Shown: positions 1 through 55,172 of the stretch, one piece after another
Position numbering within the stretch: position 1 is the stretch's first letter
Layout: each line of letters starts with the position of its first letter
IMG/VR virus record: IMGVR_UViG_3300013132_000054
Location: 1 to 62,394 of that record
DNA length: 62,394 bases
Reading direction: 5' to 3' (one strand)
Source of the DNA: a virus
Taxonomy: Duplodnaviria; Caudoviricetes
Notes under the pieces: generated by a model
What the model was told of the DNA's origin: nothing
Database searches by the model: none
The model's input: only the letters and a program-made list of their open reading frames with translations
Position numbers and translations under genes: made by a program

Positions 1-2059
1 CCCCTTGGAACATAGTTGCCAAGCTAGTTATCTTTCTAGTATCCCAATTTGATATATCTTGATTAAATGCAATTGCGTTTAGGAACATTGACGTCATTCC
101 AATACCCGCAACATTAGATACGTTCCAACCTGTTAATGGTAATGTGCTTGTTCCAGACAAACCTCCGTTATTAAACGCAGACGCATTTTGAAACATGAAC
201 GACATACTAGTAACTCCCGACACATTCCAACTATTACCATTTGTTCCAATATATCGGTTAAATAATGCGGCACTAGAAAACATAGTTATCATACTAGTAA
301 CCTTCCTAGTATCCCACGTTGATATGTCTTGATTAAACTTGTTAGCCGTATTAAACATACTAACCATATTTGTAACATTACTAGTATTCCAACCCGTTAA
401 AGGTAAATTACTTAATCCAGCCGCTTCCCCATTGTTAAACGCAATTGCGGATTGGAACATACTATTCATCAAGGTCACGTTTCCTACATCCCAAGAACTG
501 ATGTTTTGATTAAATGAATTTGCTTGTTGGAATAATGAAGTCATAATAGTGACACTCCCAACATTCCAACTTCCAATAGGTTGATTGAAAGTTGTCGCCA
601 AATAAAACATTTGTGCCATATTAGTAACATTACTAACATTCCAACCACTAATTGACGGACTACCTCCATTATTGAAAGCAGTTGCCTGTTGACACATTCC
701 AGACATATTAGTAACACCTGACACATTCCAAGAGACACCACTTGTACCAATATTTCTGTTGAACACTGATGCTCTATAAAACATATTTGACATATTAGTC
801 ACATTTCTAGTGTCCCATGTTCCAATATCTTGGTTAAATGATGTCGCTAAAATAAACATACTATTCATCAATGTTACATTACTAGTATTCCAACCTGTTA
901 AAGGTAATGTACTTGTTCCAGCCGCCCCTCCATTGTTGAAATTGGTGGCCGATGAGAACATCGAAGCCATTGTGGTCACACCTGATACGTTCCAAGAATT
1001 ACCACTTGTATTAATATTCCTATTAAATGCCGTTGCGTTGTTGAACATAAAAGACATATCAGTCACATTTCTAGTGTCCCATGTTCCAATATCTTGGTTA
1101 AATGACGCATTAGTAGAAAACATACCAAACATAGTAGTTACCGCGGATGTTGTCCAAGCAGTTAAAGGTGACGTTCCACCCCCATTATTAAATGAAGTTT
1201 GTCGGAACATTTCGTACATGCTATTCACTTTTGAAACATCCCAATTAGATATGTTTTGATTAAAGGTCGAGCATAATAAAAACATACGATACATATTTGT
1301 AACGTTACTTACATTCCAACCACTTAATTGTTGATTAAAACTTGTACACCTAACGAACATTGATTCCATGTTCGTGACCGCAGAAACATTCCAACTTCCG
1401 ATAGGTTGATTGAAAGTTCCTGTTGCGGTCTTGGCAAACATTGACGCCATTGTGGTGACATTACTAGTATTCCACCCACTAATCGAAGAACTACCTCCGT
1501 TATTAAATTGTGTAGCATTTTCAAACATGCTATTCATCGATGTCACACCCGACACATTCCATGAACCTATATCACTATTAAAAGATGTCGCACCAATAAA
1601 CATAGAAGACATATCAATCACACTACTAGTGTCCCAACTATTAACTCCACTTATGGTGACAAGTGAAGTACACCCATTAAACATTCCCGTTGTTGCAGTA
1701 ATCCCTACTAAATCAATTGTATCTGTAACTCCACTTAGTACTAAATTAGTACTACCATTGAACATATTTAGATTGGAGTTATTAAGTCCTCGTACGGGTC
1801 CCCATTTTGTAATTTCACGAAGTCTGCCCCTTTCAGTAGTAGTTAATATACTCATTCTAAAACCTGTTACAGTTCCACTAATAGTAATGGTATATGAACT
1901 TGCAACGGAGTATGTATGTGCCCTATTAGCGTAGGTATTTGCAGAAATGGACCCATCACCCCAGTCAATAGTACCTGAATAGGTGCCTAATGATTCATAA
2001 GGTAATGTAATTATCTGATTAGATGCTGTTGTTATCCACCTACTTATAAATTCCGACAC
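1..2059 (-). CDS. DUF285/BspA-type repeat surface (adhesin-like) protein with N-terminal PKD-like domain; runs off the window start, so it is absent from the ORF track
   Basis: My translation from GTG at 2059 gives MSEFISRWITT...YSGTIDWGDG..., then about 20 repeats of W(N/D)(V/T)SxVTxMxxMFxxAxxFNxxI. The frame is open to position 2, with an in-frame TAA just upstream of the GTG. Confidence 0.9.
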   Translation of the reverse strand, partial: MSEFISRWITTASNQIITLPYESLGTYSGTIDWGDGSISANTYANRAHTYSVASSYTITISGTVTGFRMSILTTTERGRLREITKWGPVRGLNNSNLNMFNGSTNLVLSGVTDTIDLVGITATTGMFNGCTSLVTISGVNSWDTSSVIDMSSMFIGATSFNSDIGSWNVSGVTSMNSMFENATQFNNGGSSSISGWNTSNVTTMASMFAKTATGTFNQPIGSWNVSAVTNMESMFVRCTSFNQQLSGWNVSNVTNMYRMFLLCSTFNQNISNWDVSKVNSMYEMFRQTSFNNGGGTSPLTAWTTSAVTTMFGMFSTNASFNQDIGTWDTRNVTDMSFMFNNATAFNRNINTSGNSWNVSGVTTMASMFSSATNFNNGGAAGTSTLPLTGWNTSNVTLMNSMFILATSFNQDIGTWDTRNVTNMSNMFYRASVFNRNIGTSGVSWNVSGVTNMSGMCQQATAFNNGGSPSISGWNVSNVTNMAQMFYLATTFNQPIGSWNVGSVTIMTSLFQQANSFNQNISSWDVGNVTLMNSMFQSAIAFNNGEAAGLSNLPLTGWNTSNVTNMVSMFNTANKFNQDISTWDTRKVTSMITMFSSAALFNRYIGTNGNSWNVSGVTSMSFMFQNASAFNNGGLSGTSTLPLTGWNVSNVAGIGMTSMFLNAIAFNQDISNWDTRKITSLATMFQG
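797..1105. repeat. 45-bp exact direct repeat (797-841 and 1061-1105), period 264 bp, inside the DUF285 gene
   Basis: agtcacatttctagtgtcccatgttccaatatcttggttaaatga occurs twice. Confidence 0.9.
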
Positions 2060-2111: not shown

Positions 2112-3080
2112 TCATTTTTTGGCGAACTCTTTGATGATTTTTACATACTCAACTGTCGCGGAACTATTATCCACATAGTCAAAAAAATCCCCATTTTCCT
2201 TGACTTTGTCTATTGGATTTACATTGATGAATTCCCCTTTATAGAATTTTTCCCTTTTCATTGAGTCCATAACACCTGCCATATGTAATATCGGATGTTT
2301 TTCATATGTTTCAATGTCTGATGTCGCCCAAGAAAAACTTAACTCATCAATTATTTTTGTTTCCTTACAATCTCTCCACAAATTCCAAAGTAATGCCCAC
2401 ATTTCGGCAGTCCAATATTGTATTTGTCCTGAACCTATCGGAAATCTTTTTTGAAAGTCGTGTAATTTGTCATATAGTAAAATCGAATCAATATATACTT
2501 TTTCCCAAAATTTAAAATCTGTATTTTTTATTATGTATTGTCCCCCTCCTGACCCTTCTTGTCTTTCTTTAACGCAACTTAATTCAACCCCAATCACATC
2601 ACACATTTCTTGTATTAATTGTTGTGGTTTTAAATCAGAATATTGTTGTTCGTGTCTATCTGCAACCGTCTTAATATACTCATATCCAATGTATCCCTTT
2701 GTATCGGATACATAAGATATTTCATCATCAATAAACTGATAATAATCAGGTAGTTCCCTGAATATAATATCTGCATCGTGTAAAAAAAATAATTCACCCA
2801 ATTCAGGATGTTCTTCCAACCATTTGCTAATTAAAAAAGGTTTAATGCTCGGAATATAATGTTTCTTAAATCTTTCATCCTTATAAAAATGAACATTATA
2901 GCCATAGTTTCTTAATTCCAAAGCGCCTTCAGATGGTTCTTGTTGCCCGTTGCATAAACCATAAATAATGTGAATGTTTTCAGGTTTAATTCCCTTACTT
3001 ACAAAATTGTGTCCATAAATTTTTGCTTGCCAATGAAAATACGGAACATCGGGCTGCGCGGTTACATAAATCAACTCCAT
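2112..3080 (-). CDS. GT-A glycosyltransferase resembling peptidyl-serine alpha-galactosyltransferase / hydroxyproline arabinosyltransferase (GT96/GT95-like)
   Basis: Ordered motifs YFHWQ, YIPSIKPxxxxxWL, LHDADIIFR (DxD), GGG, WTAEMWA. These parallel plant SERGT1 motifs as I recall them: YFDWQ, YPAINKPxxxxxWL, ILDADMIIR, VGG, WISEMYG. Confidence 0.72.
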   Translation of the reverse strand: MELIYVTAQPDVPYFHWQAKIYGHNFVSKGIKPENIHIIYGLCNGQQEPSEGALELRNYGYNVHFYKDERFKKHYIPSIKPFLISKWLEEHPELGELFFLHDADIIFRELPDYYQFIDDEISYVSDTKGYIGYEYIKTVADRHEQQYSDLKPQQLIQEMCDVIGVELSCVKERQEGSGGGQYIIKNTDFKFWEKVYIDSILLYDKLHDFQKRFPIGSGQIQYWTAEMWALLWNLWRDCKETKIIDELSFSWATSDIETYEKHPILHMAGVMDSMKREKFYKGEFINVNPIDKVKENGDFFDYVDNSSATVEYVKIIKEFAKK

Positions 3081-3117
3081 AATAAAAAATAATAATTAAA
3101 AAGTCAAATTTGTATAT

Positions 3118-3150
3118 AAAAAAAAACCACCTAATATGTAGGTGGTTTTT
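3118..3150. terminator. Intrinsic terminator, possibly bidirectional
   Basis: aaaaaccaccta-atatg-taggtggttttt inverted repeat with A and T tracts, downstream of 3170..5101. Confidence 0.8.
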
Positions 3151-3169
3151 AAGATTATTTTTAGTTTTG

Positions 3170-5101
3170 TTAGTTTGTCGATATGTATGCCGAACGTGTT
3201 TGTAAGGTATTCTTATCAGTAATCCCTTGACCTGTTGGGGCTGCGTGACTTCCTTTAATTACTATGTAGGTATTTGGAATAGGTGCGATAAGTGGTAAAT
3301 TAGCAACCAAGTCCGCAAAAAGTCCATTAACTTCACTAGCCGTTAAATTAGTTGTTGATTGGGTATATAATCTAATGTCGCAAGAACGGTTATTACCTGT
3401 CCAATTATTAAGACCTAACCAATTTGAAGCGGTGTTAACGGTATTACCAGTACTGATAATGTAAACATCGGGTGAAAACACATCATTTAAACCACCACTT
3501 ACAGTATTATTACCTTCAAGATTTAATATACCAAGACTAGTGGCACTTTGAAATGATGATAATGGTCCTGTTAAGGTGTTACCAGTCGTTGAGTATTCAA
3601 TATCGGAGTCAAAAGTAACTGTTGGAATATTATATAATCTGAAAATTCCTATAGTTTGATTTAGGGCTATCGCTGAGGTGTTGCCGCTCATAGTATTATT
3701 ACCACCTAAAGCAAAAATTTCTGTTGGCATCATAAACCCAGCAAAACTTCCATTTATAGTATTGTAACCGTCAATAATCATTTCAATTAATGAATTCATG
3801 TGAGATGGTTGGGAATCCGCTAAAAGTCCTCCTATTGTATTATACCCATTTAAATAATAATATTCAGTATTAGGTCCAAATACGATATTTCCAGATATTG
3901 TGTTATATCCCTCAATTTGTACCGAAGTAATACCCGTTAAAGACGAGCAATTTCCTGATAAAGTATTAAATCCATTAATACTTAAATTATTTAAATAGTT
4001 GTAACTTGTTAAATAACTAGTATTTCCACTGATAGTGTTATTACCCCAAATGGCTAAATCAATAATATACGTAGGTAATGATGATAAATCACCTTCTAAT
4101 GTGTTATTACCAATAATTGTAACAAATCTAGCACTTATTGGTAAGTCAGAAATATTACCATTAATATTATTATTTTTGGTAAAAATATTAATCAAACTAG
4201 TACAAGCAGATAAACCAAGAATATCTCCAGTAATGAAATACTCAGCGCTTAAATCATATAAATCAATTAATTTTCCAATTTCACTCGTAAATCCTGTAAG
4301 GTTAACCCCGTTGTCAAAAAAAGTAGTATTATAAATACCTGGAAGTTGTCCATTATTTATCGTATTACCTGAGATTTTAATATATCCTGATGAAGGTGAT
4401 GAATAAGTGTGAGAAATAACTTGATTTGATGTGGTATATGCCGATGTATTTCCGTCGCCCCAATCAATTGTATAATCAAGTAATCCTATTTGTAGTTTAA
4501 CACCTAATGAGCTATTGGTAATTGCCTGATATTGATATTCAACCGCCTCAGTAATATATAATGGGTCAGTTGGAGATGGTGTTGGAGTTACCGCATTTGT
4601 TGGTGTAGGTGTCGGGCTACCGACAGGATTTTCAGGATACCATTCACCGGCAATTTCAATACAACTACCAAGATAGTCATCCAATATTTCATAAGAAGCA
4701 TTACCAGTCGCTGACTGAACACATAAATATTGGATAACGTTAGACGTTGCAGTAAATGCTGATGTAACTCCATTACAATCCAAAATTGTAATAGTGTCAC
4801 CATATGTCCAAGCGTCAGTAGGTTGTATTGCAGTATAATTACAATAAAACGGTGACGGTGTTGGTGTTGGTTCAATACTACAAGAAGCTTGTCCTAAAAA
4901 TGAACATCCATTTGATACCGAATACGCACTTAATATAATTGTATTACCCCAGTTACCTACAGGTAACTGTATATTGAGTGGCATTTGTGTGACATCAGTT
5001 ATCGTAGGAGGATAAATATAAATTAATGTTGGTTCATTCAAACTCGATATTTGAACTTGTGATGGTGGTCCCGAATATGAGACTAATTTAACGTATGGCA
5101 T
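3170..5101 (-). CDS. Putative virion fibre/surface protein: Pro/Thr linkers, Cys module, PKD-like domain, LRR-like solenoid
   Basis: PTPTP tracts; IDWGDG...SHTY; repeated IxGxNTI/LSGxxxxL units. Confidence 0.6.
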   Translation of the reverse strand: MPYVKLVSYSGPPSQVQISSLNEPTLIYIYPPTITDVTQMPLNIQLPVGNWGNTIILSAYSVSNGCSFLGQASCSIEPTPTPSPFYCNYTAIQPTDAWTYGDTITILDCNGVTSAFTATSNVIQYLCVQSATGNASYEILDDYLGSCIEIAGEWYPENPVGSPTPTPTNAVTPTPSPTDPLYITEAVEYQYQAITNSSLGVKLQIGLLDYTIDWGDGNTSAYTTSNQVISHTYSSPSSGYIKISGNTINNGQLPGIYNTTFFDNGVNLTGFTSEIGKLIDLYDLSAEYFITGDILGLSACTSLINIFTKNNNINGNISDLPISARFVTIIGNNTLEGDLSSLPTYIIDLAIWGNNTISGNTSYLTSYNYLNNLSINGFNTLSGNCSSLTGITSVQIEGYNTISGNIVFGPNTEYYYLNGYNTIGGLLADSQPSHMNSLIEMIIDGYNTINGSFAGFMMPTEIFALGGNNTMSGNTSAIALNQTIGIFRLYNIPTVTFDSDIEYSTTGNTLTGPLSSFQSATSLGILNLEGNNTVSGGLNDVFSPDVYIISTGNTVNTASNWLGLNNWTGNNRSCDIRLYTQSTTNLTASEVNGLFADLVANLPLIAPIPNTYIVIKGSHAAPTGQGITDKNTLQTRSAYISTN

Positions 5102-5126
5102 TTTTTATTTTTTTATATTTTTAATT

Positions 5127-7658
5127 TTATGAACATAATACCGCATTTGTAACATAACCGCTAGCATCAACTTGTACCGCGACTTTATAAGGTGCATACC
5201 CTTCAAATGTATAATAAGTATTGGCTAAAGCAATCCACTGATTTCCACCATTAACCAATACACCATTCTCATCATACAATAGTAATACAGATGGAACAAA
5301 ATTGGCAACTAACTGTTGAACACTTTGAGTTCCGTTTAATGTTGACCCCATCAATTGATAGTATGATTGATAATCAAAGTTTGAGCATGATGCCCCACTT
5401 GTTGCTTGGAACGCATTATCTCCAACACATCCCATTCTATTTGAAATGTTTGAAGTTTTTGAAACATTTATTGAATAAAATGTTGGTAATGGGTCTAGTG
5501 GAGTTAAAGGCGCTAAGCTAGCGTTTACACCAGCGGCATTTAGGAATGTTCCGGTTCCAGCAATAGTTCCTCCAGTCATTTCAATTTTAATATATTCCCA
5601 TCCTGCTGCCGATGGATTAGTTGGTACTGCGGTATATCCTATTTGAATTTCCCCTCCCGAAGGTATAGTAAGTGTATATCCTGTAGTCACTCCATTAGGT
5701 AATACTACGTTAGGACCTAAACCATCAGAAAATACAAATTTATGTTGTAACCCACTTATAGTATTAATGTTAGTGTATGGCCAAGATATCTCGATATCAA
5801 CTGTAGCACCAGGTGTTCCAATAATGTCAATTGACCCTCCAATACCTGTAGCGGTTTGTGGGGTTATAAATCCACTATTAATCCTACACGCAGTGTTTTT
5901 AAATAAAATTGATTCAACATTAATATTATTTTGACAAGTCAAACAATCACTAAATTCTAAAATTGTTTGTAAGTAATTATATTGTGGTTGTCCATCTAAT
6001 CTAAATCCTGTATACTCCCAACATCCTTCATAGTCTTCTAATGTGTAAACATTCCCAATTTCAGCTCCTTGTGGTACACTTAAACTATATACTTTAGTTC
6101 CTGACAAGATTGATGCGAAGTAATTATTTAAATTATTTGTAACTAAAGATTGTGTAAATCCTGTAATTGTCGCATCTAAACTCCAACCAAAATTTTTCAA
6201 TCCAGCACCAACCTGATACTGTGATGGTAATGACTGATAAGCACTTGTATCTGTAAATCCTGTGAATGAGTTATAATAAGTTAAAGGACTAAAATCATAA
6301 TATTGCCCTTGGTTGTAAGTAAATGCAGAATAATTATTATATCTTTGATTTGGGTATGGCCATACCGTACCAGTTGAATTATTTTCACAATACGTTGCCT
6401 GAAAATAAGATGACGCCTGCGGTATTGACGCCTCCATTAATTCAATTGCCTGATATAATAAACCAAATCCTTGTGATTGATTTCTTGCCCCATTAGAATT
6501 AGCAGCAGTAACTGCTGTAGTTGGAACTGGGAATAGGAATGACCTAGCAAATCCGTTTAATGTAATATTAACATCTTCCCATACTTTTAACCAAGATTCA
6601 TAATCTCTTTGTAATGATGAACCCGAATAAGAACCTGAATATCCTGGATAGTTTCCTAAACAAGATGTTGGTACATATATTTGAGGTGCAGGATTTTGAG
6701 GATTTGGATATGGATACCCTCCATTATTAAGAATTGGGGTAAATTCCATACCAATTGAGTCAGTGTCCCATAAATAATATGATTGAAATCTATCCGTTCC
6801 TCCAGATGTTGCACTATTATTAAAACAATTATCTACATTCGCGTTACCCGGTTGTGCAGATTCATTTAATACAATAATTGATACATAATTAGTATCTCCT
6901 CCATCAAATTGACCTAATGTTATATTACTACCATCAACATAAGATGCGTGGTCAAATGGGACCCCCTTACTAATACCAGGCCCTGACAAATACGCCCCCG
7001 TCGCTAAATTTTTGGCTAACGCAATTCTTTCAATAATTGGGCTATTCTGAAGAGGAGTAGTATAAATTCCAGATTTAGTGACTCTACCCATTTCAATTCT
7101 AACTGTTGAGCTGTCTGATAAAGTTCCTCCAGTAGTAGACCCTAAATATGGGTAACACGCCCAATTAATCCATCTCTCATTAATTATAGGAATCTCATAT
7201 AAATCCCCAGTATAACCGCTAAGAGTTACCAAATCATAATACCAATTCCTAATTGATTGAGATGCCCCACTAAGTGTTTCAGTACCAGGTCCGGTAACAT
7301 TAACACCATCAGGGTATGAACCTGAAGTATCATAAAATACATAAATATTTTTGTCCAATGGTTGACCACACTCTGAAAATCCCCAAGTGCCAGGTGGTTC
7401 AATACTACAATCAATTAACTGTGGAATAGTAAATAACGTTGTGCTGGCAGACAGTTGGACAAAGACGTATTGGTCATAGTCAAATGCACTATCTATTGCA
7501 AAATAAGCCGGTAAATTTGTATCTGGAGTAAGTTGTGTTGGTAAAGTCACACAAAATCCATAATCTATTGTTGGTGGAATTGTGTTTGTATTAGCCGAAC
7601 AAACAACAATGTTACTATTAACATCCCCAGTATAATTTGTAATTAAAATTTCTGCCAT
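5127..7658 (-). CDS. Putative virion protein with vWA-like (MIDAS) domain and Cys-rich module
   Basis: NIYVFYDTSGS (DxSxS after a hydrophobic strand), later VSIIVLNES; GCWEY...FSDCLTC module. Confidence 0.5.
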   Translation of the reverse strand: MAEILITNYTGDVNSNIVVCSANTNTIPPTIDYGFCVTLPTQLTPDTNLPAYFAIDSAFDYDQYVFVQLSASTTLFTIPQLIDCSIEPPGTWGFSECGQPLDKNIYVFYDTSGSYPDGVNVTGPGTETLSGASQSIRNWYYDLVTLSGYTGDLYEIPIINERWINWACYPYLGSTTGGTLSDSSTVRIEMGRVTKSGIYTTPLQNSPIIERIALAKNLATGAYLSGPGISKGVPFDHASYVDGSNITLGQFDGGDTNYVSIIVLNESAQPGNANVDNCFNNSATSGGTDRFQSYYLWDTDSIGMEFTPILNNGGYPYPNPQNPAPQIYVPTSCLGNYPGYSGSYSGSSLQRDYESWLKVWEDVNITLNGFARSFLFPVPTTAVTAANSNGARNQSQGFGLLYQAIELMEASIPQASSYFQATYCENNSTGTVWPYPNQRYNNYSAFTYNQGQYYDFSPLTYYNSFTGFTDTSAYQSLPSQYQVGAGLKNFGWSLDATITGFTQSLVTNNLNNYFASILSGTKVYSLSVPQGAEIGNVYTLEDYEGCWEYTGFRLDGQPQYNYLQTILEFSDCLTCQNNINVESILFKNTACRINSGFITPQTATGIGGSIDIIGTPGATVDIEISWPYTNINTISGLQHKFVFSDGLGPNVVLPNGVTTGYTLTIPSGGEIQIGYTAVPTNPSAAGWEYIKIEMTGGTIAGTGTFLNAAGVNASLAPLTPLDPLPTFYSINVSKTSNISNRMGCVGDNAFQATSGASCSNFDYQSYYQLMGSTLNGTQSVQQLVANFVPSVLLLYDENGVLVNGGNQWIALANTYYTFEGYAPYKVAVQVDASGYVTNAVLCS

Positions 7659-7675
7659 AATTTTATTCTTTTTTC

Positions 7676-7682
7676 ATAAATA
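7676..7682 (-). promoter_or_regulatory. Putative late promoter TATTTAT
   Basis: ATAAATA on + strand about 18 nt upstream of start 7658. Confidence 0.55.
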
Positions 7683-7737
7683 TATAAAATGAAATATTTT
7701 TGTAATTAGCTTTTTATTTTTTATAATTTACATTATA

Positions 7738-10700
7738 TTATGTCAACACACAAACTCCTCCTACACATCCTCCAAGTGTATTATATGTAACATTTGCAGG
7801 TGGAATAGGATTGACAAATGATGTTGCACAGAAACTAGTTGACGTTGATGACCTTGAAACTGTTATAAATATTCTATTTCCACTACAATCATCATATCCA
7901 ATATTAACCGCAGTAACTCCATTATTTGTCACACTATAACAATAGCAATTTACAGGTGTAGGTGTCGGTGTTTTTGTTTTTGTTGGAGTCGGAGTTTCAT
8001 TCACAACCGTCGTTTTTGTTGGAGTTGGTGTTTTTGTTTTCGTCACAGTCGGTGTTTGAGTTGGGAAAGTAATTAATGTTTTTGTCGGTGTTGGTGTGGG
8101 TGTTTTTGTTTTTGTTACGGTCGGTGTTGGTGTTGGTGTTTTTGTTTTTGTGGGTGTAGGTGTTTTTGTTTTTGTCACAGTTGGTGTTTGAGTTTTGGTT
8201 GGTGTAATAGTTGGTGTTGGTGATATTCCGCAATTATCCGGAGCTTTATAGTAAACAATGTTTGAGCAACTAGAAGAATCGGTAAATACAACATATACAG
8301 AACAATATTGTCCGTTAGCCGGTAAGTCATTAAATATTACATCATAATCAGTATTAAATGGTGGGTAAAACACATTTTGAGTTATGGTACAACTATTTGC
8401 AATTACCAAAGTTCCAGTTAATGGTGGGTTTGATATGTGAACTGATGTCAATGCTGATACGTCATAAGTAATTGTTGAAGAGTCGCAAGCTCCAGGCACA
8501 ATTGGGTCAATTATGATTTCACAAGGTGAATTATTAGTTGGGGTTATTGTCACAGTTGGTGTGACAGTTTTAGTAGGCGTATTGGTAATAGTTGCGGTAG
8601 GAGTAACCGTAGGTGTTAAAGTAGGTTGTGGTGTTAATGTTTGTGTAGGCGTTACTTCAGGAGTTGGGAATTGTACCTGTCCAGGAGTAAGAGTTGGTGT
8701 TGTAGATACTGTTGGACTTGGTAGTACCACCGTATCACACTCAACTTCATAAATAATTCTTACATCTATTTTAATTGCATCTTGTGGTTCTAATGGGTTA
8801 TCACACAAACTATTAATTACCATTCTACCACTCTCATAATCAACAATTAAACTACCAAAAAGTCCTAAACTATTAAGATAATCTTGGACTAATTTAGCAT
8901 AGTCGTAATTTGATGGGACATCAAATAATGAATTGGTTGAATATAATGTGAATGTGCTGGCAGAGCCCGCCACATCAATATCCACATAAAAAAATGCAAC
9001 TTTTAAAGAACAATTAACCTGACCTTGTGTCAACTCAATAAATCCTTGATTAAGCATTTCTAAAAATCCTACGGTGTCATCCTCACCACAAACAAAGTCA
9101 CCACTTCCAAAGTCATAACTATAAGTTGAAACATCTCTTAACTCACATTTTACTATTGCTGTTTTTCTTGTTGAGCATCCCTGAGAATCAGTTATTGTTA
9201 AAGCGTATTCCCCATTTGATAAATTATACACCGCATACCCTGTCTGTCCTGAAACATCTCCTTCCCAAGTTAATGTATATGGAGGTGTTCCACTATTAAT
9301 AAATGCAGTTAAAGTTCCTTGCGGTAAACATCCAGAATTAACAATATTAAAATCAATTCCATTTGACCCTCCAACCGTAAAGTTTTTTGTAATGGAACAT
9401 CCTGAATTGTTTGTTAATGTTACTCCATATGTACCTTGTGGTATTCCTTGTAAAGTATAATCAGAAGTTAAATTTCTAATTGTCGCTCCGTTTGAAAGAG
9501 ATAATGTAAATGTTTGTCCTGCTATTGTAGTTGTGATATCAATAAAACAAGTTCCATTATTAATTCCACAAGTAGTGCTTGTTGGCGTTAACTCAAAATC
9601 AAATCCTAAATTTTGTTCTAAAATTATAGTTTCTGTGTAAGTACAACTTTGTAAATAATCAACTACACTAATTGTGTATGTACCAGCACTTAAACTGCCA
9701 AATCCTATTGTTGAATTTGCAGGTAGATTTGATTGGGTGGTTACAAAACCATTTGTATTTACACAAGAAGCCGATAATGGTGCCCCTCCTCCATTAACAG
9801 AAATTTCTATAAATCCGCTTGTAGAATTACAACTTTTAAACCCACTTGACGATGAAATTACACCAAAAGAATTGGCAGTTCTTAAATTAAAAGTTTGACT
9901 AACATTACAAGTACTACTTACACCTGTAAAACTAAAATCTCCTGAACCTAACCCATTAAAAGTTACAGTTCTTCCACTAGTAAATGTCGTACCTAATGAT
10001 GTATAGTAAGTTATTGGTAAGGAGCCACCGGTTAATACTATTTCAACAACACCGTCATTAAGAAAACAAGATGGGTTAGTAAAAGAAAATTCAGCAATTC
10101 CTAATCTATCATCAAGTCCAACAATTACTTCCTGTGTAACTACACACCCTGTTCCGTCAGTTACCTCAACAATATAAGTAGCATTTGTTAATCCGGTTAA
10201 ATAATAATCATCTAATTGTAATCCAACATTTGTTGACCAATTAATTGATACAGGCGGAGTTTCATTATATAAAGTAAGATATATTTCACCGTTGGGTCTT
10301 AAAGCACAGGGTGAATTATTTACTACTGTAGCATTTACCGATAGTAAACTATACGAACTATCAATTACCATAGTACCAGTATTGGCACTACATCCACCGT
10401 TATCTTCTATAATTACATAATATGCATTTGGGGATAATCCTGAAATTGTATACGGATTATCGGTAGAATTTGTAACCGATAAAAGATTATCATCAATATC
10501 GTATAAATTAAAAGTTGTAATATCCCCTAAATTTGGTGATAAGGTGATTTCTATTTGCCCATTATTTAACCCACAAGTACTGTCAATTGCAATTGTATTA
10601 GCCGAAATACCTGAAGATATATAAAGATTAATATTAGCAGTATTGTTTATTGGTGTATTAGAATCACTTACAAATATGGTATACGTTCCTGCAGAAAGTC

Positions 10701-10887
10701 CCGAGAACGTATAAGGTTCTCTAACTAACAGTACCGCAGTACCTACATAGGGTGATGCAATTTGAGCGGTGAAAGGTCCAACACCATTCAATATGTTAAG
10801 AGTGGCAGCCCCACTATTACAACCAATGTTACCATTACAACATCCTGTTAATCCTATAATTTCTATATCTATTATGTTACGTGACAT
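7738..10887 (-). CDS. SprB-repeat-like fibre/adhesin protein with long Pro/Thr(Lys) linkers
   Basis: Repeated C..NG.I.....GG..PYT...GL(S)AGTY...V.D..GC units typical of SprB repeats; C-terminal TPTKTKTPTPT tracts. Confidence 0.65.
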   Translation of the reverse strand: MSRNIIDIEIIGLTGCCNGNIGCNSGAATLNILNGVGPFTAQIASPYVGTAVLLVREPYTFSGLSAGTYTIFVSDSNTPINNTANINLYISSGISANTIAIDSTCGLNNGQIEITLSPNLGDITTFNLYDIDDNLLSVTNSTDNPYTISGLSPNAYYVIIEDNGGCSANTGTMVIDSSYSLLSVNATVVNNSPCALRPNGEIYLTLYNETPPVSINWSTNVGLQLDDYYLTGLTNATYIVEVTDGTGCVVTQEVIVGLDDRLGIAEFSFTNPSCFLNDGVVEIVLTGGSLPITYYTSLGTTFTSGRTVTFNGLGSGDFSFTGVSSTCNVSQTFNLRTANSFGVISSSSGFKSCNSTSGFIEISVNGGGAPLSASCVNTNGFVTTQSNLPANSTIGFGSLSAGTYTISVVDYLQSCTYTETIILEQNLGFDFELTPTSTTCGINNGTCFIDITTTIAGQTFTLSLSNGATIRNLTSDYTLQGIPQGTYGVTLTNNSGCSITKNFTVGGSNGIDFNIVNSGCLPQGTLTAFINSGTPPYTLTWEGDVSGQTGYAVYNLSNGEYALTITDSQGCSTRKTAIVKCELRDVSTYSYDFGSGDFVCGEDDTVGFLEMLNQGFIELTQGQVNCSLKVAFFYVDIDVAGSASTFTLYSTNSLFDVPSNYDYAKLVQDYLNSLGLFGSLIVDYESGRMVINSLCDNPLEPQDAIKIDVRIIYEVECDTVVLPSPTVSTTPTLTPGQVQFPTPEVTPTQTLTPQPTLTPTVTPTATITNTPTKTVTPTVTITPTNNSPCEIIIDPIVPGACDSSTITYDVSALTSVHISNPPLTGTLVIANSCTITQNVFYPPFNTDYDVIFNDLPANGQYCSVYVVFTDSSSCSNIVYYKAPDNCGISPTPTITPTKTQTPTVTKTKTPTPTKTKTPTPTPTVTKTKTPTPTPTKTLITFPTQTPTVTKTKTPTPTKTTVVNETPTPTKTKTPTPTPVNCYCYSVTNNGVTAVNIGYDDCSGNRIFITVSRSSTSTSFCATSFVNPIPPANVTYNTLGGCVGGVCVLT
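7955..8225 (-). repeat. Low-complexity repeat encoding (TPT/KTK)n mucin-like linker
   Basis: Repeated ggtgtt/tttgtt units; translation PTPTITPTKTQTPTVTKTKTPTPTKTKTPTPT... Confidence 0.9.
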
Positions 10888-13832
10888 TAGCTACAACTTA
10901 TACTATAATCTAATTTTAATTTTATATCAATACTACTATTTGTAAGTATCGGATTGAATCCTAAATTTTTAATCAAAAGATTACTATCAATAATTTCAAA
11001 AGTATACCCATAACTTATTAAGTTTGGTAGGTATTGATTCAACGCATTAGTCCAATCTGAATTTGATGGGGTATCTAGCGCCCCATTCCCATTATAAAAT
11101 ATATTTGACGTTACTTCACTTCCGTTTAATTCCACCGCAATTCTCCAAACAGTACTGATTGAATTTTGATTACAAGTTAATCCTTGTGAAATTTTATTAG
11201 ATATGTAATTATAACTAACTTCATTTAATAATGATTGAAAACTTGTATACGATGTAGTACCTGCAAGCCAGGGAAAAATAGGAAAGGACACAATCTGTTT
11301 ACACGCTCCATGCAAAAATAAATCAGCATCAATCACACAAGGTTTGCATAAAGATGGTGGAATAAAAGCACTACAACTTCGTGGTATTTTATATGTATGT
11401 TTTTGTCTTTGTAATGGAGCATTATTATACTTAATACCCGTATTCCATATAGTTGATGATGGGATTAATTGTTCTGCCAATTTTGGCCAATAAGTACCCA
11501 AATTTTTTACATAATCAATAAGTTTCTGATATGTAAAATTATCATTTGGTATTCCAACTTGACTTGCAGACTCCAAGTATCTCCAATAAATTATTGACAC
11601 ATCATCGTATCCACTTGAAATTTGTCTGTTTGCAACATTTACTTTGTTTTGCCAAAAAGAATTTGCAAACTCAAAGAAGGATTGTTTGTTTGGCGGGATT
11701 CCAACCGAAGCTCTAACACCACTACCATAAACTTGTTGGGTTGTGTTATTTGGAATAGGGTATCCATATTTTGTGGACATATTCCAAATGTCAAACACCA
11801 AACCAGCGGCTGGATTCATAAATAAGTCAATGTTCTTAACATTCAATACCAATCTTTCGTCATCCGCAAAATAAAATGCATTAAACCCTCCGTCATTTGA
11901 TATTCTTGATTTGTCCCTATACGACCAACTCTTTTTATTATCACTTATTTTTTTCAACTTAAATCCCATATTCATATATGGAAATTTTCTAAACCTATCA
12001 AGATATTGTTGTCCGTAAGTAAATTTCTTAAAACTTGTCTGTATATTTGGATTTTGACCTGTAAATACAGATTGACTATCACTAACATTTTGATTGCTCT
12101 GGTGTGGCGGCGTTAATTCATACCAACCCGCACCTAATTGGAAAAAGAATGAGCTTGTATTTGGTGGTGTTTTTGGATACCCTTCATCATCAATAGGGTA
12201 ATCACCTTCCAACACATCAATTGGTACTACACTTGTTGTAGCACTATACCCTGAAAATGTTTGTCCAAATATTGAAAATGTATCATTCGGATTAAATACA
12301 ATAGTTTCTTCTAATTTTGTTCCTCCTGATATTTTAGCCCACTCTGTATTAAAATCACGCATGTTGATTTTTTGGTCAGCCAAATATACAGTTTCATTAA
12401 ATTCAATTAACGCTTCAGGCGCCCCTACCAATCTTAATAAAAACTCTAAAGCTCTCCTTGTCCCTTTTGATTTAAACAAGTATGCAGAATTTAATATAAG
12501 ATTTTTATAAAATTGATAATTAATTTCACTCGGGGTCAAACTTCTTGACATACCGGGATATGGTGATTTTGTATCGTTACCAAATACTGATTTTAAAAAA
12601 TCTTCTTCCGTTATTGGTGACACGTTAATATTCCACCCAAGTGTTTGTGATAAATTTTTTAATAATTCAGATGGTATATCATTCTTTGTATTGTAGTTTA
12701 CAGAATTCATATACGCTAACGCATCTATGAACTTTTTAACCTCGTCAAAACTTCTACCATAAATGTGTAACACTTTTTCAATTCTATGGTCAGTAGTGTC
12801 AAATTCTTTAAATGCATCTGTCACTAAAAATCTTGATATTAAATTTGTTTTTGATGCGTCAAAATTTGTGGCTATATCATTTAATTTATTAATATAGGAT
12901 GTGAATTTGTTTGTTGATATATCTATATTCCAAAAACCAGATAAAGGCCAAGTTACCGATTCAGTTCCAACATAAGTAGAACCATCATCATTTTGTTTTG
13001 GAACTTGGAATGTCGCAGTATATTTTGGTGTCACTAATCTGTTTAACAAATATTTTTCAACTTCATCAAATGGTTCTGTAAATGCAACTTCAGTATAATA
13101 ATCATTAGGTTTGATAATTAAAATCTCATAAGAATTAACATCTCCTGAAAATGGTTTACCCGCAACTGTTAAAGTTAAATAACCAGTTGTAAAGTTATTT
13201 GTTGGGACTAAATTTAATATGGGATATTGTACGTCTTGAACATATACCGCATATTTGCTATATTCCAAACTCATATTTCTTAAATAAGAAACTTCAAATT
13301 CTTTGGTTGCAATGTTTCTTGTTGAGTTAACGGTATAATCCACCTCAAATGGGTTTGATGATTTGCTAAGTGGGACACTAAAACTTGTTGTGTCTTCCTC
13401 AATATCATACTCAATATTCACAGCGGTATATCCTGAAGTGAAATCTCCACCTAATGGGGATACTTCAACCGCCGCTGGAAAATAATTTAAGATTTGCGTT
13501 ATTGATGCAGCAATCCTTTTAGTTAAAGGTCCGTATGTTGAAAACTTTGTGACATTGGATAAATCAAAATTTGGATACACCCCAAACTCTTTGGCAACAA
13601 TTTTTTTAGTTTCAGCGACTGATTCTATTTGAAGATTATCTAAAGTAATTGGTGCAGAAAATGCTCCAATAGAAAAAGTTCTGTTAACTTTTTCACTTAA
13701 ACTTGATGTGAACTCAAAATTACCTTGTGTTAATCCTCCTCCATCTACTACCTGAAAACCTACAATGTTGTCAGAAAATGTTCCCGCTCCGCTAGATGGT
13801 CTTGGTGGGTATCTATATAACTTTCTCGCCAT
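10887..13832 (-). CDS. Baseplate wedge-like protein (P2 gpI / T4 gp7-like motif)
   Basis: LLKNLSQTLGW...AYLFKSKGTRRALEFLLRLVG motif; location in baseplate cluster. Confidence 0.55.
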   Translation of the reverse strand: MARKLYRYPPRPSSGAGTFSDNIVGFQVVDGGGLTQGNFEFTSSLSEKVNRTFSIGAFSAPITLDNLQIESVAETKKIVAKEFGVYPNFDLSNVTKFSTYGPLTKRIAASITQILNYFPAAVEVSPLGGDFTSGYTAVNIEYDIEEDTTSFSVPLSKSSNPFEVDYTVNSTRNIATKEFEVSYLRNMSLEYSKYAVYVQDVQYPILNLVPTNNFTTGYLTLTVAGKPFSGDVNSYEILIIKPNDYYTEVAFTEPFDEVEKYLLNRLVTPKYTATFQVPKQNDDGSTYVGTESVTWPLSGFWNIDISTNKFTSYINKLNDIATNFDASKTNLISRFLVTDAFKEFDTTDHRIEKVLHIYGRSFDEVKKFIDALAYMNSVNYNTKNDIPSELLKNLSQTLGWNINVSPITEEDFLKSVFGNDTKSPYPGMSRSLTPSEINYQFYKNLILNSAYLFKSKGTRRALEFLLRLVGAPEALIEFNETVYLADQKINMRDFNTEWAKISGGTKLEETIVFNPNDTFSIFGQTFSGYSATTSVVPIDVLEGDYPIDDEGYPKTPPNTSSFFFQLGAGWYELTPPHQSNQNVSDSQSVFTGQNPNIQTSFKKFTYGQQYLDRFRKFPYMNMGFKLKKISDNKKSWSYRDKSRISNDGGFNAFYFADDERLVLNVKNIDLFMNPAAGLVFDIWNMSTKYGYPIPNNTTQQVYGSGVRASVGIPPNKQSFFEFANSFWQNKVNVANRQISSGYDDVSIIYWRYLESASQVGIPNDNFTYQKLIDYVKNLGTYWPKLAEQLIPSSTIWNTGIKYNNAPLQRQKHTYKIPRSCSAFIPPSLCKPCVIDADLFLHGACKQIVSFPIFPWLAGTTSYTSFQSLLNEVSYNYISNKISQGLTCNQNSISTVWRIAVELNGSEVTSNIFYNGNGALDTPSNSDWTNALNQYLPNLISYGYTFEIIDSNLLIKNLGFNPILTNSSIDIKLKLDYSISCS

Positions 13833-50965: not shown

Positions 50966-51829
50966 TTAATTAATTTTTCTTTTATTTCCTGATTGAGTTG
51001 AATAAATTTTAACACCTGGTTCATCACCAAATTCTTTATCAAACATTTCAATATTCTTTGGGTCATCATCAGATACACCTAATTGAAATTCTGGTATAAA
51101 TGAATTAGAAATATCATTTTTAATCATTGCTTTTAAGCTAAGTTCTTGAGCCAATTCTTTACAATAATCTAAAAAATTTCTAAATGCAATTTTTTTTAGT
51201 TCTTCAGGATTTGCGGCAGAACCCTCTCCGAAAGTCACAGGGTGAAATTTACAAAGGTTAAGATACTCATTAATTAATTCAATATCCTCCATATTTTGAA
51301 GTTCAAATATCTCTCTATATTTTTGTAGATTAGATACACATTGTTTCATACTTAATCCGTGTTTACCTGAAAGAATTAGTTCATAACAAGCTTCTTTAAT
51401 AGTTTCAGGATTATGTCCCCTTGCGGTAATTATTGAAAAGATTGAACCTCCGTTTATACATTCTACAAAATCATTCCAAGCCGGTCCCACAGGAGCAATT
51501 AAACAATCAATCAAAAACTTTTCGTCCCCATCTGTTTTAAAATCCCTAAACATATTTGGTGCAAATTCTACAATGTCGTGTCCATTGTATGAAAACTTAT
51601 CTTTACCGATACGACTTCTATATTTGGCGAAATCTTTTGTTGACATGCCAATTTCTTCATCTTTGTCACTTAAAACATAAATTACAGTCGGCATATACAT
51701 AAGATTATCATCCCAATCAAATGCATAATATTTTAAAGAAGGAATCCCCTCCTCCGATACTGCTTCAAGTAATCGGAGGATAAGGGAATCCATTTTTGTT
51801 TTGTTTAAACTCATATTAGATATTATCAA
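50966..51829 (-). CDS. HAD-superfamily hydrolase (true start may be a downstream Met)
   Basis: AFDWDDNL (motif I), IITARG (II), K, GVSDDD (IV). Confidence 0.75.
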   Translation of the reverse strand: MIISNMSLNKTKMDSLILRLLEAVSEEGIPSLKYYAFDWDDNLMYMPTVIYVLSDKDEEIGMSTKDFAKYRSRIGKDKFSYNGHDIVEFAPNMFRDFKTDGDEKFLIDCLIAPVGPAWNDFVECINGGSIFSIITARGHNPETIKEACYELILSGKHGLSMKQCVSNLQKYREIFELQNMEDIELINEYLNLCKFHPVTFGEGSAANPEELKKIAFRNFLDYCKELAQELSLKAMIKNDISNSFIPEFQLGVSDDDPKNIEMFDKEFGDEPGVKIYSTQSGNKRKIN

Positions 51830-54800
51830 ATGACGCTCCTGTTGGAGTTATTAAGAACTCAATATCTATGAACTCTAAAGATTTAGTTGGTTTAACATAG
51901 ATTTTACCTACTAATTGGTTTCTGTCTAAATCTTCAGCTGAAGATGAAACAGTTACACGGAAATCATATAAACCTCTATCTCTTCTGATTGAATCCAAAA
52001 TAGGATTAACTGCGTCCAAGAAATCTTGTCTCACTTTAGCATCGTTTTGTTCAAACAACAATCTAACTGCGACTGCTGAAATTAACTTACGAGCTTGTAA
52101 TAATAATCTTCTAACATTTAATCTGTCAAGAGCGGACTCTCTAATTTGTAAAGTTTTATTACCCCAAATTACAGTTCCTACATCAGAGAAAGTTGCGATT
52201 GGGTTAATTCTTCCTTTATAAAGAGTGTCTCTATCTTCTTGTGTTAACTTCTTACGTGCTTTAACTGCATTTACAATACCACGTGTGTAACCCGCAGATG
52301 CGAACCAAGGGAATGCAATATTATCAGTTAATGCTAAGTTTCTACAAACTTCCGCAGTTGGTGGGATGTAGATTTGAGTGTTATTAACTGTATCACGAGT
52401 TAATACCCAAGGATAGTAAGTTGCGGTATAGTTAGAATCAATTCCTGTTTCTTCTAATGAATCAACCGCATCTTGTGGATAGATTAAATCATCAGCAGTA
52501 TATGTTTGAACTAATAAATTACTGTCAGGAGTTGTACACAAATAAATTGAGTCAGCTCTATCAAACTCAATCATTTCAATTGAAGCCTCAACTAAATTTG
52601 AATTGTTCAACCAATCAATACCAGGAGTTGCAAATACATTTATATTTGTTGCTTCAGGGTTTGAGAATGTTTTAATACCTAACAAATATGCATAATAGTC
52701 AGTATTTGCCCAATCTTGAGTATTGTCACCAACACTTATTAATTTAAATGTTCCCGCACCTGATGCATTTGGATAACGTGCGGTAGCACAAGCTCCATAC
52801 AAGAAACCTCTTTGTCCTACTTGGAATAAATCTCCATTAGTTCTTGTTTCACGATAGATGTCCCATGCGTCAAATCCTCCTTGTACTAACAAACTAAATT
52901 TACGTGAAAATAATCTATAATATGGACTTGATGTGTTTGTAGGTTCAGAATTAAATGATGCTGCTCCAACTTCAAATGCAGATTCTCCCGATGTTGTATA
53001 TCCTGATGGAATTAAAACAACAGTTGCCCCACTATCCATATGGAAACCTTTGGATAAAAATGACCACTCATCTCCTGTAGTATCTTCACAAGGGTCAATA
53101 GGTCCTTGTTTTCCTTTATATTGGAAATAATCACTATCATATCCGATAGTATCTGATATACCCAAATAAGTTCTTCTTACATTGTCCCCACCGCTTCTAA
53201 TAACAACGTCAGTTCCGTCAGTAATACCAAATGGAGGATTATAAATTACTTCACCTGGGAAATCATACTTTGTTTTATAAATTGGAAATCCTGTTTTAGC
53301 ACCAGCGTAATCTCTTGATTTATAACCTTCAAATCCACAAGGTAAAGCATCTACAGGTGCATCAACATTATAATCTACCATTATGTATTTAGAGTTTAAA
53401 ACAAACTCACCGTCAGAAGAACCAATTTTCTTAGCAATATAGTTATTCAAATTTGGGTCTAAAGAACAGTTTGTGAATTTTTCTAAAACTACAGGTGATT
53501 CATCACTATCATAGTAATTTCTAACAACAACATCAAATGTTCCGTTTGCAAATGAAATGTTCAAAATTGAAATTTTAACTTGGAAATTTGCAGAATTACC
53601 GTCAGCGATTGATACAAATCTAAACAATTTATATACATTATTACCACGTAGTTCAGAAACAACCCAAGGAGATACTGGACTTTGATACTTTTCTAAATAC
53701 CAAGCAATTGATGTTCCTGAATTGTAATCCTGTCTGTATCCAGGTAATGCAATTAATTCTGAACTTAATCCACGAATATAACCTTTTCTCCAAGCCCACG
53801 TTAATAATGTTGAATAATTTTCTTCTAACATTAATGGAACTTGAGTTCTTGGTTTTGTAAAGTTTCCATAACCTAATACTTTATTAATTGCAGTAGCGTC
53901 TGTTTCAGACAAACTAACTTTCAAGTTAAAGTTTGTGTTATCAACTGTAGTACCTGTAATTGCAAATGGTGCAAATGGGTTTTGCTCTACCGCCGCATAA
54001 CTTCCACTAAAATCTAAACCAACAGATGTTAAACCTGTTACTTGATAAGAAGGTCCGTTAGATGTTGCAGTATAGAATGTTAAACCTCTTGAACGCATTG
54101 TTGCAACCACTAATTCGTGATATTCAGAATAAGTCAAACCTGACATATTAAATAAATAACCGTGAATTGACCCCGAATAACAAACATTAGGTGTTGTAGG
54201 TGTGGTTGTTACAGTTGGTGTTGGTGTTGGTGAAACATCACAAGGATTATAAGTTGAAGTAACAGTGACTGTAGGTGAAGGGGTTGTAGTTGTTGTAACT
54301 GGAAGTAATTCCAAATTATCAACTACAATTACAAATGAATATCCTGAATAGTTTTCACCTGAAGTTGGGTCAAATAATCCATAATACCAAGCGTCATTAT
54401 ATGGTGATGTAAAGCTACAACTGTAGGATGAGTTACCACTTACACCCATAACATTTGTTACGTTTGTAAATCCTGCACCTGTATAAGTGTTATAAACATC
54501 TCCGGGTATTATACCCCAAATTGCAATTGAGTCGCCACTCATAGTAGTGTCAGCTAAAATACCTTGAACAAATGACTTAATATCATCTTCTAAAGTAGAC
54601 GTTCCTCCATCAAATTGGGTGTATACATTTGTATATTTCGCTTCAATATCTTCAGGGAATAATCCTTCAAATGATAATTGTGAAATGAAATTACTACAAC
54701 CTGTGAATGTTACTGAAATTTCACTTGTTCCTGTAATCACACAATTTGTTTCACAAATTGCTGGGTCAACTGCGTAGTTTGGTGTTGTGGAACAACTGTA

Positions 54801-55172
54801 AGTATAACCTACGGTTGATGAGTCAACATTTGCTACCGTTTTTAAAGACCAAGAAGGTCCCGCATCGTAACCCGATAAACCCAATACCCTTGTTACAAAT
54901 AATTGATTTGATTGTTGGAGGTATGCCTTAGCGATATAAGACATTTCATATTTTGGTATTTGTGTATTCACAAATTTTTCAGGAGTTGTTCCCCCAAAAT
55001 AAGTTTGATACTCATCATAATTTGTGATGAATATCGGTTCAAAAGCTGGTCCTTTGGTAGCTTCTCCAACTAATCCCAAAGTTGTAACACCTACGCTAGA
55101 TGTTACAAAGCTCAAGTCCCTTTCTGATGTATAAACACCAGGCGAAACGAATACTTTGTTTGCTGTTGCCAT
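51816..55172 (-). CDS. Contractile tail sheath protein with large outer-domain insertions
   Basis: VSPGVYTSERD, GEATKGPAFEP, YYPWV, PWFASAGYTRG, INPI...IWGNKTL, RLNVRRLL. Confidence 0.95.
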   Translation of the reverse strand: MATANKVFVSPGVYTSERDLSFVTSSVGVTTLGLVGEATKGPAFEPIFITNYDEYQTYFGGTTPEKFVNTQIPKYEMSYIAKAYLQQSNQLFVTRVLGLSGYDAGPSWSLKTVANVDSSTVGYTYSCSTTPNYAVDPAICETNCVITGTSEISVTFTGCSNFISQLSFEGLFPEDIEAKYTNVYTQFDGGTSTLEDDIKSFVQGILADTTMSGDSIAIWGIIPGDVYNTYTGAGFTNVTNVMGVSGNSSYSCSFTSPYNDAWYYGLFDPTSGENYSGYSFVIVVDNLELLPVTTTTTPSPTVTVTSTYNPCDVSPTPTPTVTTTPTTPNVCYSGSIHGYLFNMSGLTYSEYHELVVATMRSRGLTFYTATSNGPSYQVTGLTSVGLDFSGSYAAVEQNPFAPFAITGTTVDNTNFNLKVSLSETDATAINKVLGYGNFTKPRTQVPLMLEENYSTLLTWAWRKGYIRGLSSELIALPGYRQDYNSGTSIAWYLEKYQSPVSPWVVSELRGNNVYKLFRFVSIADGNSANFQVKISILNISFANGTFDVVVRNYYDSDESPVVLEKFTNCSLDPNLNNYIAKKIGSSDGEFVLNSKYIMVDYNVDAPVDALPCGFEGYKSRDYAGAKTGFPIYKTKYDFPGEVIYNPPFGITDGTDVVIRSGGDNVRRTYLGISDTIGYDSDYFQYKGKQGPIDPCEDTTGDEWSFLSKGFHMDSGATVVLIPSGYTTSGESAFEVGAASFNSEPTNTSSPYYRLFSRKFSLLVQGGFDAWDIYRETRTNGDLFQVGQRGFLYGACATARYPNASGAGTFKLISVGDNTQDWANTDYYAYLLGIKTFSNPEATNINVFATPGIDWLNNSNLVEASIEMIEFDRADSIYLCTTPDSNLLVQTYTADDLIYPQDAVDSLEETGIDSNYTATYYPWVLTRDTVNNTQIYIPPTAEVCRNLALTDNIAFPWFASAGYTRGIVNAVKARKKLTQEDRDTLYKGRINPIATFSDVGTVIWGNKTLQIRESALDRLNVRRLLLQARKLISAVAVRLLFEQNDAKVRQDFLDAVNPILDSIRRDRGLYDFRVTVSSSAEDLDRNQLVGKIYVKPTKSLEFIDIEFLITPTGASFDNI

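Follow-up and report, generated by a model that had tools for sequence, protein, structure and literature searches.

A candidate O-glycosyltransferase family for threonine-rich virion proteins of phages

The DNA analysed here, the 62,394-nucleotide stretch of IMG/VR virus record IMGVR_UViG_3300013132_000054 (the window, meaning this whole stretch), is a 62.4 kb piece of a large phage, with a CheckV completeness estimate of 21%. The phage is contractile-tailed, with baseplate wedge, gp25-like, T4-baseplate and tail-sheath genes in the window, where RNR, DnaB, UvsX-like and gp32-like genes are also found. Analysis of one gene of the window (2112..3080, minus strand) suggests that its 322-amino acid (aa) product is probably a soluble enzyme that O-glycosylates Thr-rich segments in virion proteins of its own phage. 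There are good grounds to conclude that the family to which it belongs, phrog_4417, acts on poly-threonine (poly-Thr) tails in phages of Bacillota, and it is rather likely that the enzyme of the window acts on the Pro/Thr-rich (PT) linkers of its own phage.

A glycosyltransferase of a widespread phage family

The gene and the motifs of its product that are discussed below are as follows.

2112..3080, minus strand: glycosyltransferase gene; ATG start, 322 aa, soluble, GT-A fold, member of phrog_4417
3027..3041, minus strand: YFHWQ motif, residues 14-18; aligned to YQRWQ in bacterial HPAT-family proteins
2769..2777, minus strand: DxD motif D102-A-D104; predicted divalent metal/nucleotide-sugar site, aligned to DPD of the HPAT-family profile
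2394..2414, minus strand: WTAEMWA motif, residues 223-229; aligned to W(I/A)xEMWGY of the HPAT-family profile
2283..2285, minus strand: H266, invariant; aligned to an invariant H of the HPAT-family profile; candidate third metal ligand

An earlier note, made from the sequence alone, had described this open reading frame (ORF) and a series of motifs in it, all of which are present in the order claimed (at residues 14, 75, 101, 178 and 223): YFHWQ; YIPSIKP at residue 75, followed by WL; HDADIIFR at 101; GGG at 178; and WTAEMWA. The motifs do not appear to be chance strings, falling as they do on invariant or near-invariant columns of a 62-sequence family alignment, in which W17, Y75, D102, D104, Y130, G179, W223, M227, F249, H266, G269, F279 and K281 are invariant and Y14, Q18, G178 and W228 are conserved in at least 90% of the sequences. 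A role of H266 as third metal ligand would match the chemistry of GT8-type enzymes. The highest mean Kyte-Doolittle hydropathy over 19 residues is 0.65, so the protein has no membrane segment, and in the AlphaFold2 (AF2) model its N-terminus already belongs to the Rossmann-like core, as strand one; the note's view that neither a signal nor a transmembrane segment is present therefore stands.

The AF2 model (predicted local distance difference test score 97.5) has a Rossmann-like GT-A fold, and with the DxD motif also present the protein can be called a glycosyltransferase with high confidence. Its best structural matches are GT8 and GT24 enzymes at 8-12% sequence identity. The protein-acting enzymes glycogenin, UGGT, GlyE and Skp1 AgtA are among these best matches, and the sugar-on-sugar enzymes XXYLT1, LARGE1 and, again, Skp1 AgtA are among the close structural neighbours; no GT95 or GT96 structure is among the matches listed. 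The earlier note had allowed that best matches to glycosyltransferases acting on something other than protein, together with a lack of peptide transfer, would speak against a protein acceptor; this objection does not apply, for although the best structures are from GT8 and GT24, several of these enzymes act on proteins. The identity range of 8-12% likewise applies to the known retaining GT-A enzymes of GT8 and GT24 with which the phage protein can be compared (glycogenin, LgtC, UGGT, and GlyE of the serine-rich-repeat adhesin pathway), and Pfam Glyco_transf_8 (PF01501) matches neither the protein nor any of 62 family members at E <=1. A structure search of BFVD returned uncharacterised phage proteins at the top (TM-scores 0.89 and 0.72), followed by GT8-like giant-virus enzymes (about 0.5 or less), and no HPAT-named viral protein appeared in it. 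The capsid-glycosylating enzyme A64R of chlorovirus PBCV-1 (PDB 2p6w), an enzyme of a eukaryotic virus with no sign of Thr-rich acceptor tails, ranks below the GT8 structural matches.

The protein matches phrog_4417, a family annotated as 'unknown function', over its full length (E 9.9e-66; residues 5-319 against profile positions 3-291 of 293). At E <=0.001 there are 1156 homologues in 90% clusters, and the 120 listed are nameless or 'hypothetical protein'; clustering at 50% identity gives 812 family representatives. Among isolated phages, 77 records have a match at E <=1e-5. Most of these phages infect Lactobacillus, Enterococcus, Staphylococcus, Lactococcus or Clostridium, and Chryseobacterium phage MA9V-3 ranks first (41% identity). 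In IMG/VR a family member is found in at least 595 stretches, from aquatic phages. Searches of Pfam and NCBIfam with the 322-aa protein matched no family, and searches of PDB by sequence and by profile gave nothing below E 0.07.

Association with threonine-rich tails of structural proteins

The glycosyltransferase gene covaries with a poly-Thr tail on the tail-tube protein. Searches with eleven tail-tube bodies from which the tail had been removed brought up 74 prophage loci of Bacillota, of which 70 were usable; 21 of these encode both a poly-Thr tail and the glycosyltransferase, none the tail only, none the glycosyltransferase only, and 49 neither (p 2.6e-18). Among the 21 loci, the gene starts 4-14 nucleotides (nt) after the stop codon of the tube gene in 19, overlaps it by 3 nt in one, and lies 769 nt downstream in one. 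Together with the location of the homologue inside the structural module in all nine isolated phages examined, this pattern without discordant loci supports the proposal of the earlier note that the enzyme would act on virion proteins.

In these isolated phages the homologue follows several kinds of structural gene: directly after the tail-tube gene in phiFL1A and phiCTP1; after the tail-tube gene with a short overlapping ORF between the two in TPWB06 and RQ1; after the capsid gene in vipetofem and probably in R3.3, which is an unannotated record; after the gene of a small protein of 115-125 aa in PLE3 and Semele; and after that of a 428-aa protein in MA9V-3. The proteins encoded upstream of the homologue end in or contain long poly-Thr stretches, and Thr-rich stretches are present on capsid, tail-tube or small structural proteins in nine of nine phages. 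Eight of the nine pass a scan threshold of at least 8 Ser or Thr in 10 residues, the tail tube of phiCTP1 (C-terminus EETTTTTNAPITTTTTTV) falling just under it. The transferase gene is linked in this way to structural genes with acceptor-like tails, a trait expected of virion-glycosylation systems of the mycobacteriophage type; in the window itself the link is weaker, consisting in PT linkers of the sheath and of the fibre-like proteins.

Family members are also found when loci are picked solely by DNA pattern. In IMG/VR, 8 of 118 loci with (ACN)x10 (1.01 Mb, GC content 0.405) contain a family member, against 0 of 117 control loci with (GAN)x10 (1.03 Mb, GC content 0.411; Fisher p 0.007). At the six of these eight loci that were inspected, the gene lies just downstream of, and on the same strand as, a gene whose product is 556-2067 aa long and contains several poly-Thr linkers. 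At 80 loci from prokaryote genomes, same-strand Ser/Thr (S/T) runs lie upstream in the first, second and third kb at 25/73, 14/68 and 13/64 loci, respectively, and downstream in the first to fourth kb at 2/76, 4/75, 2/69 and 1/67. Stand-alone homologues have an upstream S/T run at 23 of 36 loci, 19 of which have it at the C-terminus of the upstream ORF.

The short ORF that overlaps the end of the tail-tube gene in Arcanobacterium phage TPWB06 and Staphylococcus phage RQ1 is in another frame and encodes more poly-Thr; a similar overlapping poly-Thr frame follows the capsid gene of Enterococcus phage vipetofem. Programmed frameshifting into such a frame may give some of the subunits a longer Thr tail.

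Overlapping poly-Thr frames of TPWB06, RQ1 and vipetofem: L086 3714-3920, L087 3626-3937, L088 3647-3805

Relationship to the HPAT/SGT1 lineage

The earlier note had proposed homology to the plant and algal enzymes SERGT1 (SGT1) and HPAT. According to PMC8012813, GT95 and GT96 are related to each other and HPATs are Golgi type II membrane proteins. Comparison by hhalign of the phage-family alignment with 26 bacterial members of Pfam family PF23452 (HPAT), rather than with plant sequences, gave a probability of 94.8% (E 5.5e-8) over 249 columns (positions 12-309) and placed every motif in register (YxxWQ, YxPxxxPxxLxxWL, DxD, WxxEMW, H and K); the reversed alignment gave 1.1% and five column shuffles at most 0.2%. 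At matched size, four HPAT-family sequences gave 74.9% over 223 columns, versus 29.6% over 60 columns for four GT8 sequences. HPAT is the sole Pfam family matched by more than one of 62 family members (3/62, best E 0.046), and of the 30 nearest named ESM-Atlas clusters 18 are HPAT and 6 DUF7164. These comparisons indicate that phrog_4417 is a distant sister of the HPAT/SGT1 lineage, nearer in sequence to HPAT/SGT1 than to GT8, and in this form the proposed homology is borne out. The 322-aa protein itself has no PF23452 hit at E <=1 (hmmscan) or at E <=10 (targeted search of the window), the family cut-off being 23.9 bits; because it is below Pfam's own HPAT threshold, and thus not a Pfam member, 'GT95/96-like' is the right wording.

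Bacterial HPAT proteins provide an intermediate. A search of 401 genomes of one phylum found two strong members of PF23452, scoring 101 and 88.5 bits, and a third, borderline one at 25.7 bits. This last ORF is recognised too by the hidden Markov model (HMM) of the phage family (27 bits), with YxxWQ, DxD, WxxDM, H and YK aligned. In five genomes with phage-family members, PF23452 matched a single ORF, other than the main homologue. A homologue search from one strong member yielded 94 proteins, 91 of them with PF23452, and JGI names some PF23452 proteins peptidyl serine alpha-galactosyltransferase or hydroxyproline O-arabinosyltransferase. The gene that follows one strong bacterial HPAT-family member (L290 2369-3616, plus strand) begins with a dinucleotide-binding GxGxxG motif and by eye resembles UDP-galactopyranose mutase, which would fit a furanose donor.

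By profile-profile alignment, the phage family shares the whole catalytic domain of the family that includes the plant and algal enzymes HPAT (GT95) and SGT1/SERGT1 (GT96), as represented by the bacterial PF23452 members. Within Pro-rich peptides, HPAT places Araf on Hyp and SGT1 places Gal on Ser; these enzymes and the phage enzyme alike have a connection to hydroxy-amino acids of structural proteins that are rich in Pro and low in complexity. Unlike plant HPAT, the phage enzyme is soluble, lacks the type II membrane anchor, is encoded by a phage and falls below the Pfam threshold; its likely acceptor would be Thr, rather than Hyp or Ser as for HPAT and SGT1. A search for longer, SGT1-sized relatives returned only three fused forms and no plant protein.

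Relatives of the phage domain are fused to other glycosyltransferase domains (PF11397 GlcNAc, O-FucT and GT2; also GT1 plus GT2). On chromosomes of Bacteroidota (Chitinophaga, Pedobacter, Mucilaginibacter and Sphingobacterium; L216-L286) the domain forms the N-terminal half of proteins of about 500-600 aa, and at loci of Acidimicrobiia (L210-L224) it lies within proteins of about 1000 aa. These fused forms have no poly-Thr neighbour, and their acceptor is therefore probably different. A second, HPAT-like ORF is located about 4 kb away on the opposite strand at the Acidimicrobiia loci.

Candidate acceptors in the window

The following neighbouring and structural proteins of the window were examined with a threshold of at least 9 T, P or S in 12 residues.

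3170..5101, minus strand: fibre-like protein, 643 aa, candidate acceptor, directly upstream; PT linkers at residues 73-84 and 162-178 (nt 4850-4885 and 4568-4618)
7738..10887, minus strand: fibre-like protein, 1049 aa, candidate acceptor; six T/P-rich runs in residues 721-979 (nt 7951-8727), including TPTPTKTKTPTPT repeats
51816..55172, minus strand: tail sheath, 1118 aa, candidate acceptor; Pfam Phage_sheath_1 and Phage_sheath_1C; T/P linkers at residues 289-330 (nt 54183-54308)
2..2059, minus strand: DUF285 repeat protein, directly downstream of the glycosyltransferase gene and open at the window edge; Pfam E 5.6e-165

The 643-aa protein matched no Pfam or PHROG family, and the 1049-aa protein has weak matches to SprB and SdrD_B. 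The DUF285 protein, identified as a neighbour by the earlier note as well, contains 12.8% Thr and 14% Ser and has no T/P/S run at the threshold. In the tail sheath, the sheath domains are confined to residues ~833-1106; the roughly 800 N-terminal residues are thus an unexplained extension, and it is this extension that holds the T/P linkers.

In 80 close relatives from IMG/VR (53-89% identity) the gene is kept in the same module of large, variable proteins, and T/P/S-rich runs are present in the next two genes after the glycosyltransferase at 58/78 and 59/72 loci. In several of these relatives (L007, L011, L016 and others) the glycosyltransferase gene comes directly after that of a T/P-rich protein of about 900-1400 aa and is followed by genes of proteins of about 450 and 845 aa. 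The gene order in the window (2112-14740) differs, with genes of 843 and 643 aa between the T/P-rich protein and the glycosyltransferase and the DUF285 protein after it. Short Cys-containing C-termini (such as ...NDNCPCI, ...SDCAPC and ...TSCPTCP) occur on large poly-Thr or PT-linker proteins beside the glycosyltransferase at other loci (L091, L108, L121, L141, L147 and L155), and two proteins of the window have Cys-containing C-termini as well (5127-7658, ...NAVLCS; 7738-10887, ...GGVCVLT).

Alternative explanations

Several observations weigh against the proposed action on Thr-rich virion proteins, or against its connection with HPAT. Stand-alone homologues of prokaryote genomes lack an S/T run within 700 nt upstream at 13 of 36 loci, and long fused forms, mostly on chromosomes of Bacteroidota and Actinomycetota, have an upstream run at only 1 of 37; the family is thus not tied to poly-Thr everywhere. 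Since poly-Thr tail and glycosyltransferase gene are adjacent, their co-movement as one cassette could explain part of the covariation, but cassette co-transfer does not explain the poly-Thr tails on proteins encoded elsewhere in isolated phages (the capsid of phiFL1A, the capsid and tail tube of PLE3, a tail-tube-sized ORF of R3.3 and the tail tube of vipetofem). On the tree of tail-tube bodies both traits require 12 changes of state, and well-supported branches offer only three independent contrasts; all three agree, a number too small for a sign test. The HMM of the phage family misses the two strongest bacterial HPAT proteins at E <=10, which speaks against close kinship, and the proposed link to HPAT rests on profile-profile comparison and one intermediate sequence. 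Within the window no C-terminal poly-Thr tail adjoins the glycosyltransferase gene; the candidate acceptors are internal PT linkers, a feature often met in large surface proteins of phages and bacteria. The earlier note had counted three Pro/Thr-rich genes upstream, which is accurate for 3170-5101 and 7738-10887; the gene at 5127-7658 has no T/P/S run at the threshold. Among the close relatives, the gene just before the glycosyltransferase has a T/P/S-rich run at only 27 of 76 loci.

The acceptor could instead lie outside the virion. Modification of a host envelope polymer (teichoic acid, lipopolysaccharide (LPS) or a capsule precursor) would alter receptors and block superinfection, as TarP, a prophage-encoded teichoic-acid enzyme, does. 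This is improbable, given that the gene lies within the late structural module of the nine isolated phages and not in a lysogeny or moron region, that its covariation with the poly-Thr tail on the tail tube is without exception, and that it is carried by phages of both Gram-positive and Bacteroidota hosts, which have no common envelope polymer. It is also found in one record of the Herelleviridae, a strictly lytic family, and in the contractile-tailed phage of the window. Decoration of hydroxymethylated bases as a defence against restriction is a very improbable function, although the window includes the replication and nucleotide-metabolism genes listed above (RNR, DnaB, UvsX-like, gp32-like) and is only about 21% of the genome. 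Phage GT-A glycosyltransferases are known to hypermodify DNA; these enzymes have R...DDD...EDY/F motifs like those of JGT and TarP and cluster with 5mYOX, ThyS or C5-methyltransferase genes (Pyle et al., bioRxiv 10.1101/2023.12.21.572611). The 322-aa protein lacks these motifs, and no 5mYOX, ThyS or C5-methyltransferase gene, nor any other transferase, nucleotide-sugar or base-modifying enzyme, was found among the ORFs scanned in the window, which is about 21% of the genome. Homologues in temperate siphophages of 36-41 kb, moreover, sit between the tail-tube and tail-chaperone genes. Position in the structural module, covariation and different active-site motifs together argue against both envelope and DNA as targets, in line with the earlier note's expectation that the enzyme would act on neither DNA nor LPS.

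It is unlikely, if somewhat less so, that the enzyme elongates a glycan begun by another enzyme or uses a non-protein acceptor (a small molecule or polysaccharide), in which case its position among fibre genes would be synteny only. The multi-domain relatives, which join the domain with up to three other transferase domains, suggest stepwise building of a glycan, and sugar-on-sugar enzymes are among the close structural neighbours. However, in the Bacillota cassettes the gene is the sole member of its family within 2-3 kb after the tail tube (1.1-1.2 kb at two loci) in a search with the family profile only; if it is the only transferase in these cassettes, the peptide itself would have to be its acceptor. 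Among the ORFs scanned in the 62 kb window, too, no other glycosyltransferase was found.

Proposed mechanism and significance

If the enzyme is an O-glycosyltransferase of virion proteins, it would be a soluble cytoplasmic protein that binds a nucleotide-sugar through the DxD motif, a divalent metal and the conserved His, and would move the sugar to hydroxyls of Thr, perhaps also of Ser, in disordered Thr-rich or Pro/Thr-rich segments of structural proteins. The transfer would take place during late infection, before or during virion assembly; in the phage of the window, the linkers of the sheath protein and of the fibre-like proteins encoded nearby are the likely acceptors, and the virion would end up with a mucin-like coat of glycans, each started by this enzyme. 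The enzyme is probably retaining, as GT95 and GT96 are in CAZy, and in that case would form an alpha linkage from a UDP-alpha-D-sugar donor. The chances are about even that phrog_4417 is, more broadly, the catalytic core of a widespread phage system of mucin-type O-glycosylation, in which dedicated poly-Thr tails or linkers on capsids, tail tubes, sheaths and fibres are all coated with sugars by a single soluble transferase of the HPAT/SGT1 lineage. Phages of Bacillota, Actinomycetota and Bacteroidota would share this system with large aquatic myoviruses, enzyme and tail being gained and lost together as a two-part cassette. Among prokaryotes and viruses, the nearest kin of the plant enzymes that glycosylate extensins would then be found in phages.

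Glycosylation of virions is itself already known from chloroviruses and from mycobacteriophages: the phage-encoded glycosyltransferases of Che8 (gp110), Corndog (gp38) and Myrna are reported to decorate the C-termini of capsid and tail-tube subunits (PMC12619734, PMC12363180), and the glycosylation shields the particles from antibodies (PMC12363180). The present family differs from these systems in that there is no sequence match: none of the 77 phage records matching at E <=1e-5 has a Mycobacterium host, though Che8 is in the collection. The capsid and tail-tube proteins of Che8 end in ...NKTGS and ...YSDGS, without a poly-Thr tail. So far as the literature searched shows, glycosylation of phage virions is documented only in a few mycobacteriophages, and no paper describing the phrog_4417 family, DUF7164, GT95/GT96 in phages or a link between poly-Thr and a transferase was found in full-text literature, mostly outside subscription journals and with supplements excluded. 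If the proposed function is correct, a far larger, unrelated enzyme family glycosylates the virions of many other phages, with an acceptor that can be recognised by a sequence signature, the poly-Thr tail. This would bear on the immunogenicity and mucus adherence of therapeutic phages and on the reading of unexplained cryo-EM (cryo-electron microscopy) densities, and would give an annotation to more than 1000 'hypothetical proteins' (among the 1156 matches). It would also bear on the evolutionary origin of the plant GT95 and GT96 enzymes.

Other features of the window

Three giant ORFs on the minus strand (18423-23678, 35373-41879 and 42195-47243, encoding 1751, 2168 and 1682 aa) together make up a quarter of the window and match no Pfam family at E <=0.001; in all, no Pfam family was found for four giant ORFs of the window or for most ORFs of the fibre module. 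On the plus strand, the first ~230 residues of a 543-aa ORF (58856-60487) comprise both superoxide dismutase domains of the Fe/Mn type (Sod_Fe_N, E 3e-23, and Sod_Fe_C, E 2e-40), and about 300 further residues without a family follow; the ORF is a phage-encoded superoxide dismutase fusion.

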